From a virus (Duplodnaviria; Heunggongvirae; Uroviricota; Caudoviricetes), in the IMG/VR virus record IMGVR_UViG_2851949629_000009, positions 1 through 23,710 of that record: 23,710 nt of DNA, one strand, 5' to 3'. Position numbers: made by a program. Positions 9,001 to 12,000 of this stretch are shown here, piece after piece; within the stretch, counting starts at the first letter, position 1, and every line of letters starts with the position of its first letter.

Positions 9001-12000
9001 AGCCGGGGATTTTTTCTTTGTGATTCCATCCAATGCATACTTAAAAGCCCTGCTAATCGGACTGATGTCTGATGCCATTCCAAAAGCACACAATACCGAA
9101 GCAATAAATCTCCAGTCCGTTCTGCTTATCTTCGATTCATGACAGCCAATCATCTTTGCCAGACCGCGCTGGGTAATAGCTGACAGATTGATAAGTAAAT
9201 CTGTTTCTGCGCGATCAACGTCACGCTGTGATAGTTTGCTGTAACTTGTTCTTTCCATTTCTTACTATTTCCATAGGTAAATAATCACTAATACTCATCT
9301 TTCGATGAGTGCTTAATTAGTTACCGCGTTGTCGGCGGTGCAGATTGATAAAGAGCGGTGTTACTTATGCAGCCAGAAGGTTCTTTTTACTTATTTCAAG
9401 CATTTCGCTTGCTTGATATTTGCCACCAGAAATCTCTTCGATTTTTGAGGCGTATTTCGTTTTCCCAAAAAACTCAGTCTTAGGGAGGAAGCCGTTTTTG
9501 AGCCACTTATAGACAGCCCTTTCGCTAACTCCACAAGCCTTCGCAACTTCAGGTATGCCGACACCTTTAATCGGCTCATCAAGATTTTGCATAGGAATAT
9601 CCTTTTTCGTACTTTCAGTACGCATTATGATTGAACTGAAAGTTTTTGCAAGTGCTTTAGTATCGTACTCATGGTTCAGAATGAAAAAGTGCGCAAAGAA
9701 TTCGCCCAGCGGCTAGCGCAAGCCTGTAAAGAAGCTGGTCTTGATGAACATGGTAGGGGAATGGCTATAGCCCGTGCCCTTTCTCTTTCGTCCAAAGGCG
9801 TTAGCAAATGGTTTAATGCTGAGTCTTTACCGCGTCAGGAAAAAATGAATGCGCTTGCGAAATTTCTAAACGTTGATGTTGTTTGGCTTCAGCACGGCAC
9901 TTCGTTAAATGGAGCGAATGATGAAGATACTCTTTCATTTGTTGGCAAATTAAAAAAAGGGTTAGTGCGCGTGGTTGGTGAGGCAATTCTTGGTGTTGAT
10001 GGTGCCATCGAGATGACCGAAGAACGCGATGGGTGGCTCAAGATTTATAGCGATGATCCAGATGCCTTTGGTCTTCGTGTGAAAGGAGACAGCATGTGGC
10101 CCAGAATAAAATCAGGAGAATATGTACTCATTGAGCCTAACACCAAAGTATTCCCGGGTGATGAGGTGTTTGTCAGAACCATCGAAGGACACAACATGAT
10201 CAAGATTCTTGGCTATGACAGAGATGGAGAATACCAATTTACAAGCATCAACCAGGACCACAGACCAATAACGTTGCCTTATCATCAAGTAGCAAAGGTG
10301 GAGTATGTGGCTGGTATTCTGAAGCAATCTCGCCATCTGGATGACATCGAGGCAAGGGAGTGGCTGAGAAATTATTAATACCAATAGCATAGAGACGAAA
10401 ATGCGACAGGTTTTAGGTACAAATCATAACCCTATCCACAAACAACGTTGTAAATATACACATAAGACTATTGTAAAAAAAGCTCTATCCCAGTAAATGC
10501 GGTTGCAAAATGGGTTGATCGAGCATATATAAGGAGTATAGTTAGTGACCCAAGATGAAACGAATGAATATCTGAAAACCTTAGCATTGGTTCCAAGTGC
10601 AGAGGCCTCCGCAGAGGAGAAGCAGATATATAGCGTCAAAAAGGCTGTAATCGGTCTGATTGAATTTGTTACAACCAGTCTTGAAGAGCTTGGAATTGAA
10701 GGGTTGCATGAGTTAACAAACCCATCTCTTGACGAATTAGATGCAGAGCTAGAGAAACTTGACCAAAAAGCTGATGCAATCAATGAACTAAACTTAAAGC
10801 AAATCATCATATTTGCACAGATTTTAATCAAAAACATAAGAGAAAAGAATCCTGATTTGTGCTCTGAGGGATCAAAACTACTCAAGAGTGCTAAATCGGG
10901 TCTTTGACACTTACAGAGCGGAGGATAAACATGTCTAGAACTGAACATATCAAAGATATGCTTAAAAGTGCGGATCGAATCAATCAGATTATTGCTGAAA
11001 TGAAGCAGAGAAAAGCAGAAATGCTAGCATCAAAGCTTCCAATGGCAGCATAACCAAAAACACCCGCTTCGGCGGGTTTTCTTATTCCCCTAAAAAGATC
11101 AAACAACTCCACATTAGCTTTTTTGTGCCCACAGTTTTCTACCTAGCAGTTTTCTTTGCCTCCCGATCCACCATCTAAAAACACATAACCAATTGTATTT
11201 ATTGAAAAATAAATAGATACAACTTGCTAAACCACGCAATTCTGATCCCTGCCGCATAACCTTCATCCGCAACATTTACAAAAATAAATTTCCTTATATA
11301 TCAAAATCATATTTCGTAGAGTTAATAAATCATAAACGATTCGTACCAATAGTTCTTGATAATATCGAACTACTGGTTCGTTATTATCGCCATCAGCAGG
11401 ACGTTGGAAGCCAAACGGAACAGATTGGCGGGCTCTTTAACTTCGATGGGGCGCTGACAAAGCGCAAACAGATACCAAACGAGATGGGTTTGGCGGTGTG
11501 GTGAAGGGTTCATGGACGGGAATATGTCGCACGTAAAGCGGCGAGGCCTGCGGGACTATTGCCGAATTGAAGTAGGCCGAAACAGGTCGAAATGGGTCTC
11601 CCACCTACCTGTAAGCGTCAACGGAGCACCGTATTGACGCTTATTTATTAGTGAGTACTACGTTCCATGGCAGGAGTTCGTCAACTCGGTTGGAAGGCCA
11701 TTCCGGCAGTACGCTCAGGATATGGCGCAGATACGCTTCCGGATCGATACCATTCAACCGGCAGGTGCCGATCAGCCCGTACAACAGTGCACCACGCTCG
11801 CCGCCGTGATCGCTACCGAAGAACACGTAATTTTTCTTTCCGAGACAGACTGCACGAAGCGCTCTTTCCGCTGTGTTATTGTCCGCCTCCGCCAGACCGT
11901 CATCACAGAAGTTGCACAACGCAACCCAGTGCTTCCTGATATACCGGAACGCATCTCTCAGACGGCATTTTTTCGATAACGTGTGTTCTTTCTCCTGCAT

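Follow-up and report, generated by a model that had tools for sequence, protein, structure and literature searches.

The locus

The window, i.e., the whole stretch of 23,710 nucleotides of viral DNA analyzed here, carries a cro gene of the 933W type on the minus strand (9365-9592) and a cI gene of the same type on the plus strand (9671-10378). Over 75 aa, the cro product has 100% identity to 933W Cro. The cI product presents the Pfam HTH_3 and Peptidase_S24 domains and shares 98% of its residues with 933W CI; there is no difference in residues 1-170, which comprise S41, K42, and K46 of the recognition helix (PMC3317979). Identity to 933W is also 98% in the oR region, and the annotated oR1, oR2, and oR3 map exactly onto it.

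On the other side of cI, a GC-rich hairpin (ACCCGCTTCGGCGGGT) followed by TTTTCTT forms the putative intrinsic terminator of the cI-side transcript (11062-11082, plus strand), at the position of the annotated 933W tM and mEp332/lambda Timm (tM/timm). An AT-rich stretch, the left operators with the predicted pL promoter, and nutL come next. In nutL, both elements are on the plus strand: the boxA-like GCTCTTTAAC (11432-11441) was read from the sequence and is positioned as in the nutL of lambda and mEp332, and the boxB hairpin GCGCTGACAAAGCGC (11451-11465) is identical in 933W, where it lies inside the annotated nutL.

An ISEc43-like insertion sequence of the IS66 family occupies 11611-14151 on the minus strand, with Pfam matches to IS66 TnpA, TnpB, and TnpC. 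Annotated ISEc43 copies match it at 99.9% identity from end to end, and it is flanked by an 8-bp duplication (ACCTACCT, at 11603-11610 and 14152-14159). Homology to 933W ends at 11609, the last base of CCTACC and one base inside the left copy of the duplication. Beyond it, the N antiterminator gene (14194-14502, plus strand) matches Pfam N_peptide over its full length (E = 2.8e-38). Lying between nutL and N and oriented against transcription, the insertion sequence cuts N off from pL and nutL. It is private to the window, and its junction was absent from the 5,426 complete E. coli genomes searched. An Rfam scan of 9000-11800 (E <= 1) retrieved sub-threshold noise only and no known RNA family.

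Operators and immunity type

The original prediction described a 31-bp palindrome (GATAATATCGAACTACTGGTTCGTTATTATC, 11358-11388) with a dyad core common to oR, and the palindrome and the sequences quoted with it are all present. The strict 15-bp pattern CGWAC-N5-GTWCG has exact matches only at 9608-9622 and 11366-11380 in the 23,710 bases. Shuffles gave an expectation of 0.03 per window, and none of 100 shuffles reached two, so this pair of sites is not due to chance and the shared core stands. The 13-bp core GWAC-N5-GTWC has four exact matches in the whole window: OR1, OR3, OL2, and OL1.

On the right side, OR1 (CGTACTTTCAGTACG, 9608-9622) matches the strict pattern exactly and maps to the oR1 annotated in AF125520. 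OR2 (TGAACTGAAAGTTTT, 9632-9646) has one mismatch to the 13-bp core and maps to the annotated 933W oR2, while OR3 (CGTACTCATGGTTCA, 9664-9678) has the exact core, includes the cI start codon, and maps to the annotated oR3. On the left side, OL2 (CGTACCAATAGTTCT, 11342-11356) presents the exact core and the same sequence as in 933W, and OL1 (CGAACTACTGGTTCG, 11366-11380) matches the strict pattern; 933W has CGAACTATTGGTTCA at the equivalent place. OL2 lies upstream of OL1 at 24 bp from center to center, a spacing equal to that of OR1 and OR2. The original prediction was right on the OL1 core and the OR1 pattern and missed OL2, OR2, and OR3.

The 933W repressor has five natural operators of 15 bp each, with no OL3. 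In their half-sites, A and C are invariant at positions 4 and 5, position 2 is G save in one OR2 half-site, position 3 has A as consensus and T in OR1, and position 6 is T in seven and C in three (PMC3317979). The ten half-sites of the window agree with each of these statements, position by position. OL1 reads CGAAC-TACTG-GTTCG and OL2 reads CGTAC-CAATA-GTTCT, and in each the two half-sites carry G-(A/T)-A-C from position 2 to position 5. In OR1, positions 3 and 3' are both T, and OR2 has AAAAC as its right half-site, with A for G at position 2. At position 6, seven half-sites have T and three have C (those on the right of OR3, on the left of OL2, and on the right of OL1). For OL3, 11086-11341 held no further core match except one with a single mismatch at 11334-11346, which we rejected as a third operator since it overlaps OL2 and is not conserved in 933W. 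A lone half-site at 11312-11319 (TTTCGTAG) was also discarded, being variable among relatives.

A motif missing from homologues with the same repressor had been named as a result that would speak against the prediction. Instead, the operator pair at 24-bp spacing was present in 74 of 74 CI-anchored loci, at 1.6-3.1 kb from the cI start; these loci were found through the CI protein alone and counted only when at least 1.5 kb of downstream DNA was available. CI is 98-100% identical across all loci. The 933W-type motif was absent from lambda, mEp332, and SH2026Stx1, which share the flanking DNA and encode other repressors.

Operators, CI, and Cro are of the phage 933W type. The region is very probably the oL/pL of a lambdoid prophage with the immunity of this Shiga-toxin phage. 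The proposed oL/pL identity and CI/Cro recognition pattern are borne out, as the dyad CG(A/T)AC-N5-GT(A/T)CG is the pattern of the resident repressor, of the 933W type. The dyad also marks the immunity type, as had been suggested, and this type is that of phage 933W (PMC3317979; GenBank AF125520 annotation). The core of the palindrome is a 933W-type OL1, and it belongs to an already known and well-studied repressor-operator system, which has been studied directly and with binding data (PMC3317979).

As a separate observation, the survey of oL in 51 haplotypes displayed constant half-site cores and promoter hexamers, and variable positions 6-7, center base, and flanks.

The predicted pL promoter

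The predicted pL transcription start is the A of ATCAGCAGGACG at 11392 (plus strand), which aligns with the ATCAGCAGGACG of lambda, and the mEp332 annotation places the 5' end of the pL transcript at the equivalent point. The lambda pL transcript begins with ATCAGCAGGACG (lambda 35582). By its position relative to this shared start, TTGATA (11356-11361, plus strand) is the candidate -35 hexamer; it falls one base 3' of lambda TTGACA in the MAFFT alignment and is present in 48 of 51 haplotypes. The putative -10 hexamer (11379-11384, plus strand), which is CGTTAT in the window and CATTAT in relatives, follows TTGATA after a 17-bp spacer, and 7 nt lie between its end and the start shared with lambda. 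CATTAT at this distance is found in 47 of the 51 haplotypes, and the remaining relatives keep A at -11 and T at -7. Alignment and conservation together point to this assignment of hexamers and start.

At 11380, the predicted -11 of pL, the window has G and all other distinct haplotypes (50/50) have A. This exact G variant of OL1 had no match in genome_contigs or viral_contigs. Without the key A at -11, a promoter with CGTTAT would be weak here, and its assignment rests on the relatives. A consensus promoter scan called none at pL. A second -10-like hexamer, TATTAT (11383-11388), is kept as TA...T in all relatives seen.

In the proposed mechanism, a CI dimer would recognize 15-bp dyads with the half-site C-G-(A/T)-A-C-(T/C)-N. 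OL2 would adjoin the -35 hexamer, and OL1 would fill the 17-bp spacer and overlap the -10 hexamer. With the operators over the pL hexamers, bound repressor (and Cro) would block RNA polymerase and turn off the leftward operon, that is, nutL, N, and the downstream genes. In a lysogen, CI at OL1 and OL2 would keep pL silent, and the same CI would make the cell immune to incoming 933W-type phages. The predicted CI binding and pL repression at OL1 and OL2 are carried over from the 933W literature. The early promoter and operator region of 933W was reportedly characterized in Tyler 2004, Koudelka 2004, and Bullwinkle 2011, and oL-bound 933W repressor is said to repress PL (Koudelka 2004).

The AT-rich stretch and the direct repeats

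The stretch upstream of the operators is AT-rich, as originally noted: 64% at 11086-11430 and 69% at 11149-11340 vs. 52% in the whole window. The ORFs within 11086-11430 are short only, the longest being of 53 aa on the minus strand. Its segment at 11149-11250 is a spacer common to lambdoid phages of different immunities by sequence identity, 86-93% identical to lambda 35709-35807, H-19B, mEp332, SfI, HK544, and VT2-Sakai. The AT-rich stretch is the usual lambdoid spacer from the cI-side terminator to oL. A minus-strand ORF at 11114-11275 that matches phrog_22865 is interrupted in the 933W-like phage phi345, and its ends in lambda are not the same; we treated it as an ORF call on conserved non-coding DNA.

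Next to the operators, 11265-11341 is the upstream part of the 933W immunity module and includes the A-tract AAAAATAAAT and an IHF-like core, TATCAAAATCATA (11299-11311). It is constant in all 45 haplotypes, with three unrelated versions further upstream. The 933W immunity module is young, and because this applies to the whole module, we did not use the conservation of 11265-11341 as functional evidence. The IHF-like core has one mismatch to WATCAANNNNTTR (two in 933W) and is centered at -87 from the predicted start, with the A-tract nearby at 11280-11289. Scans with the IHF consensus are weak, and lambda's own region scores no better than 11299-11311 in a simple scan. By analogy of position with lambda, the AT-rich stretch may act as an IHF/UP-type activating region.

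Two copies of CAGTTTTCT are present at 11132-11140 and 11147-11155 (plus strand), as described before. The first lies at the end of an inserted cassette. Within the second, a remnant of the T-rich tail of the ancestral terminator, GTTTTCTTTGCC, starts at 11149; this copy falls on GGGTTTTCTTTGCC in the terminator of lambda, 933W, and mEp332 when aligned, and homology to those phages starts there. The pair was retrieved only in 5 of 62 related loci, those with the same upstream gene cassette, and in 58 of the 62 the second copy has its aligned counterpart in the T-rich tail of tM/timm. Being confined to the loci with that cassette, and with a terminator tail as one copy, the repeats do not define operator specificity, contrary to what had been proposed. 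We infer that CAGTTTTCT would mark the joint where a cassette with its own terminator replaced the ancestral terminator stem and left its T-rich tail.

The palindrome and alternative readings

The palindrome at 11358-11388 is imperfect, with 13 of 15 arm positions complementary (mismatches 11365/11381 and 11371/11375), and consists of OL1 plus promoter-derived flanks. The window holds only two 31-nt palindromes of this quality vs. a mean of 0.025 in first-order Markov simulations. The recognition unit is the 15-bp core and not the 31-bp palindrome, since complementary flanks are found at OL1 only (7/8 vs. 1-4/8 in the other four operators). One arm falls on the predicted -35 hexamer TTGATA and the other on the DNA around the predicted -10 hexamer; the outer right arm is variable among relatives. 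The outermost C/G pair is perfectly symmetric only through a substitution private to the window, and this symmetry is not a property of the operator family. The outer arms are promoter-region DNA, outside the protein recognition site.

Three other readings were weighed against this layout. It is highly improbable that the whole palindrome is the functional unit, either as a hairpin at which transcripts running on from the cI operon would pause or end before the pL operon or as a site for a protein with a wider footprint. Complementarity of 7/8 in the flanks is unlikely by chance, the RNA fold reaches -13.1 kcal/mol (z = -3.4), and a terminator scan flagged the core hairpin; however, CGCCAUCAGC comes next instead of a U-run, for which we rejected an intrinsic (rho-independent) terminator, and a strong terminator is already present at 11062-11082. 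Moreover, the right outer arm differs across relatives (TTATTGTC, TTATCATC, TTATTGCC), as does the inner left arm, such flanks occur in none of the other four operators, and the arms have their place in the promoter hexamers and surroundings. About as little probability goes to the CAGTTTTCT repeats being iterons bound by a regulator that would act on pL or on the upstream cassette. An exact 9-mer repeated at 15-bp spacing arose in about 5% of the simulations of the 345-bp region (chance of about 0.05, weakly significant alone), but about 2.4 such close 9-mer repeats are expected by chance in the whole window. Of 62 related oL regions with this repressor, 57 lack the repeats; the second copy corresponds to the T-rich tail of the ancestral terminator, and the tail of the new one holds a third GTTTTCT, a CAGTTTTCT/GTTTTCT pattern typical of joints between terminator-bounded cassettes.

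Somewhat less remote, and still unlikely, is a different promoter on the same operators: an extended -10 promoter TG-A-TAATAT (11357-11365) between OL2 and OL1, with OL2 in the spacer and OL1 over the start (~11372), a layout that copies 933W pR and pRM abutting OR3. The extended -10-like TGATAATAT lies between OL2 and OL1 like the 933W pR -10 between OR2 and OR1, and the 9-nt inter-operator gap is equal at oR and oL and holds the -10 CATAAT at pR. Besides, TAGTAT|OR3 and TAATAT|OL1 form a 20-nt repeat with 80% identity, and the AT-rich DNA immediately upstream could be an UP element. Against it, two related haplotypes have C in place of the final T of TAATAT, the base that would serve as the essential -7, most relatives read TAATGT with G as the fifth base, and there is no usable -35 hexamer upstream. 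In contrast, relatives conserve TTGATA-17-CATTAT, and the alignment with lambda pL includes the common ATCAGCAGGACG block, both of which favor the promoter with TTGATA as predicted -35.

Comparison with known phages

The window and 933W share the CI DNA-binding domain, Cro, oR1/2/3, OL2, the predicted -35 hexamer, and the nutL boxB, together with the place and half-site cores of OL1 and two oL operators with no OL3. They differ in the center base of OL1 (C for T) and in its position 1' (G for A, the predicted -11 of pL). The cassette from cI to oL consists of two small ORFs in the window and of L0084-L0083-stk-L0081 in 933W. The leader from start site to boxB and the N-terminal part of the N protein also differ, and only the window has an insertion sequence between nutL and N.

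With lambda, the window shares the order of cI, accessory genes, terminator, AT-rich spacer, operators over pL, nutL, and N. Homology covers the terminator tail, the spacer (lambda 35709-35807), and the first 12 bases of the predicted transcript, and the operators would overlap the -35 hexamer and the spacer/-10 region as they do in lambda. The lambda operators are three, of 17 bp and of the TATCACCGCCAGAGGTA type, with cooperative binding and OL3-OR3 looping, whereas the 933W type has two 15-bp oL operators of unrelated sequence. The 933W-type repressor does not bind cooperatively (PMC3317979).

A further comparison is with prophages of E. coli O102:H6 (three genomes, e.g., NZ_CP163448), which are 99.5-99.7% identical over 10380-11450 and present the same cassette, the double CAGTTTTCT, and C as the center base of OL1. 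Three IMG/VR contigs (L017, L065, and L015) have the same cassette end and repeats as the window. Unlike the window, these prophages and the three contigs keep A where the window has G at 11380; the genes that follow nutL are different in them, and they have no insertion sequence.

Significance

At the level of operator recognition, there is nothing new here, since it has already been worked out biochemically for 933W. Our modest contribution is, on the one hand, the survey of natural oL variants in 51 haplotypes and, on the other, two private lesions of the pL operon that bear on prophage inducibility. The oL/pL region is ordinary apart from the private point change and the insertion sequence.

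Given its assignment to the 933W immunity group, the prophage should make its host immune to the Stx2 phages of that group and repress them in trans. We tentatively consider, as a possible but doubtful scenario, that the immunity module is intact and the leftward operon disabled twice, by the G at -11 and by the ISEc43-like element. If both lesions act as predicted, the prophage would be locked in and no longer properly inducible. If true, the 933W-type repressor would still be made, and the host would be protected from superinfection by Stx phages of 933W immunity.

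Gene order and immunity module

The window corresponds to a lambdoid prophage's early region, with its map in mirror image to that of lambda. The minus strand carries P (7332-8033), O (8030-8929), cII (8962-9258) and cro (9365-9592), whose product is 100% identical to the Cro of the Shiga-toxin phage 933W (GenBank AF125520). After oR (about 9600-9680) come, on the plus strand, cI (9671-10378), two small ORFs (10545-11053: 10545-10907, 120 aa, and 10934-11053, 39 aa) and a terminator (11062-11082), followed by the region under study (11086-11430), nutL (11432-11465, plus), an IS66-family element (11611-14151, minus) and N (14194-14502, plus). 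Within O, close 9-mer repeats at 8505-8574 (TTTGAGGGAT; TCCCTCGTTTT) occupy the same place as the lambda-type replication-origin iterons annotated in 933W.

The region at 11086-11430 is a left operator of the 933W type, an element already characterised, and the observation behind the original prediction of CI/Cro operators at oL/pL is real and its core interpretation right. CI is 98% identical to the 933W repressor, and the first 170 residues are identical, including S41, K42 and K46, which are implicated in base recognition (PMC3317979). The oR region is 98% identical to 933W, the annotated oR1, oR2 and oR3 of AF125520 map exactly onto 9608-9622, 9632-9646 and 9664-9678, and the oL region can also be aligned. 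Here OL2 is CGTACCAATAGTTCT (11342-11356), identical in 933W, and OL1 is CGAACTACTGGTTCG (11366-11380; CGAACTATTGGTTCA in 933W). The 13-bp core GWAC-N5-GTWC has four exact matches in the window (OR1, OR3, OL2 and OL1), and OR2 differs by one mismatch; scanning the window with this core found no conserved third operator upstream of OL2. For 933W, too, Bullwinkle et al. 2012 (PMC3317979) describe five natural operators, none of them an OL3.

The published 933W operator has 15 bp, symmetric about the central base pair; positions 4 and 5 of each half-site (one arm of the dyad) are invariably A and C, all half-sites but one, in OR2, have G at position 2, the position 3 consensus is A, with T in OR1, the tightest site, seven half-sites have T at position 6 and the other three have C, and position 1 has a less than 2-fold effect (PMC3317979). 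All ten half-sites of the window are consistent with every one of these statements, so the consensus first proposed, CGNAC-N5-GTNCG, is essentially the published recognition sequence. The sequences quoted with that proposal are all present where it placed them, and CGWAC-N5-GTWCG occurs exactly twice in 23.7 kb (9608 and 11366), against 0.03 expected.

At oR, a -10-like TAGTAT runs directly into OR3, which contains the cI start codon (9658-9678); this arrangement suggests that the cI mRNA from pRM may be leaderless, as in lambda. With 80% identity, TAGTAT-OR3 and TAATAT-OL1 make up a 20-nt repeat.

Conservation among relatives

An exact search with OL2 plus the -35 hexamer retrieved 57 IMG/VR contigs, and all those with enough DNA encode a 933W-type CI (at least 97.9% identical) and Cro. 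Against circularity, a second search started from nothing but the CI protein. Each of the 74 loci in which 1.5 kb or more follows cI carries two operator-like sites spaced 24 bp apart; in six further loci lacking the pair, the sequence ends early. Half-site cores are constant among relatives, whereas positions 6 and 7, the centre base and the flanks vary. The motif is absent from lambda, mEp332 and SH2026Stx1, which share flanking DNA and have other repressors. Absence of the motif from phages with the same repressor, one outcome that the original prediction had named as counting against it, is therefore not what these loci show.

Palindrome and pL promoter

The 31-nt palindrome (11358-11388) is not perfect, since 13 of its 15 arm positions are complementary; the window holds only two palindromes this good, where 0.025 would be expected. 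The other (14070-14100) lies within the IS end, upstream of tnpA, where there is also a close direct repeat, TCTAATTTAG (14080-14106). Only the core of the oL palindrome, which is OL1, holds as operator sequence. The complementary flanks of OL1 (7/8, vs. 1-4/8 in the other four operators) fall on the -35 hexamer and on the DNA surrounding the -10 hexamer, and the right arm differs between relatives (TTATTGTC, TTATCATC, TTATTGCC). As RNA, the palindrome has a predicted fold of -13.1 kcal/mol, and no U-run follows the hairpin. We regard the 31-bp extension as a by-product of promoter context, without operator information.

When the window is aligned with lambda, TTGATA (11356-11361) sits one base 3' of the lambda -35 hexamer TTGACA, and ATCAGCAGGACG, from 11392, matches an identical lambda stretch with which the lambda pL transcript begins. 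Relatives have CATTAT 17 bp downstream of TTGATA, with its end 7 nt short of this start; 47 of 51 distinct oL haplotypes have it, and the other three relatives retain A at -11 and T at -7. From these positions we infer the layout TTGATA-17-CATTAT with a start from 11392. An extended -10 element between the two operators (TGATAATAT), as at 933W pR, is the less likely arrangement, since relatives do not all keep its key -7 T. In the TTGATA-17-CATTAT layout, OL2 would adjoin the predicted -35 hexamer, and OL1 would occupy the spacer and overlap the predicted -10 hexamer, the same overlap as in lambda, so that repressor bound to OL1 and OL2 would exclude RNA polymerase from pL.

Spacer, direct repeats and cassette

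The region under study has 64-69% A+T (52% in the whole window). Positions 11149-11250 are the spacer that lambdoid phages commonly have between oL and the cI-side terminator; they share 86-93% identity with lambda 35709-35807 and with the corresponding place in H-19B, mEp332, SfI and others. The homology with lambda and 933W sets in within the T-rich terminator tail of these phages (GGGTTTTCTTTGCC); the stem of that terminator is replaced here by about 750 bp with the two small ORFs and their own terminator. The direct repeat CAGTTTTCT (11132 and 11147), proposed as a determinant of operator specificity, is exact and weakly unusual (regional chance about 5%). The second copy is the T-rich tail of the replaced terminator, the first lies at the end of the incoming cassette, and both are restricted to the 5 of 62 loci with the same cassette. 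We read the pair as marking the joint of a recombination event rather than as regulatory, and as carrying no operator information.

The cassette (10400-11148) stands in for L0084-L0083-stk-L0081 of 933W, is also present in E. coli O102:H6 prophages, and has no Pfam match and only one to phrog_16322 (unknown function). Among the CI-anchored loci, the operator pair lies 1.6-3.1 kb from the cI start; the cI-oL interval is therefore a hot spot for cargo genes. Opposite the conserved spacer, a minus-strand ORF (11114-11275, 53 aa) matches phrog_22865 (E = 1.4e-10), and a lambda ORF of 61 aa resembles its middle part; the minus-strand ORF is broken in the 933W-like phage phi345 and hence is unlikely to be a gene.

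From about 11265, which marks the edge of the immunity module, all 933W-immunity haplotypes are constant, and upstream there are three unrelated versions. In the upstream part of the module are an A-tract and, centred at -87 and with one mismatch, an IHF-like core (11299-11311). Lambda has an IHF site and an UP element near oL, according to references cited in PMC3708714; the likeness is positional, making the A-tract and core a candidate counterpart.

Private features of pL and N

Compared with 933W, the nutL boxB is identical (GCGCTGACAAAGCGC), and a boxA-like GCTCTTTAAC found upstream of boxB in the window is missing from 933W at the position that aligns with it. The arginine-rich motif of the window N, GNAKTRRHERRRKLAIER, is of the P22 type; 933W N (L005, 2066-2449) differs in its N-terminal part (MTRRTQFKGNSRSRRRERLK...) and shares the C-terminal end.

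G at 11380 is unique among the 51 haplotypes (132 loci), the other 50 (131 loci) having A, and exact searches of genome_contigs and viral_contigs for this OL1 variant gave no match. It makes OL1 a perfect CG...CG dyad, an outermost symmetry noted in the original prediction that proves private to the window. The base is both operator position 1' and the predicted -11 base of pL, changing CATTAT to CGTTAT; the -11 A is the most critical base of a sigma-70 -10 hexamer. Operator position 1 is nearly irrelevant for binding (PMC3317979). Either a promoter-down mutation or a sequencing error may account for the G.

The IS66-family element separates nutL from N and stops 42 bp before the N start codon; it is an ISEc43-like copy of 2541 bp that is 99.9% identical to annotated copies and is flanked by an 8-bp target duplication, ACCTACCT (11603-11610 and 14152-14159). 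None of the 5,426 complete E. coli genomes that were searched has its junction. With tnpA, tnpB and tnpC on the minus strand, running against pL, the element probably blocks or lowers N expression from pL. Together, G at 11380 and the insertion sequence suggest, as a prediction from sequence, that the pL operon may no longer be functional beside an intact repressor gene.
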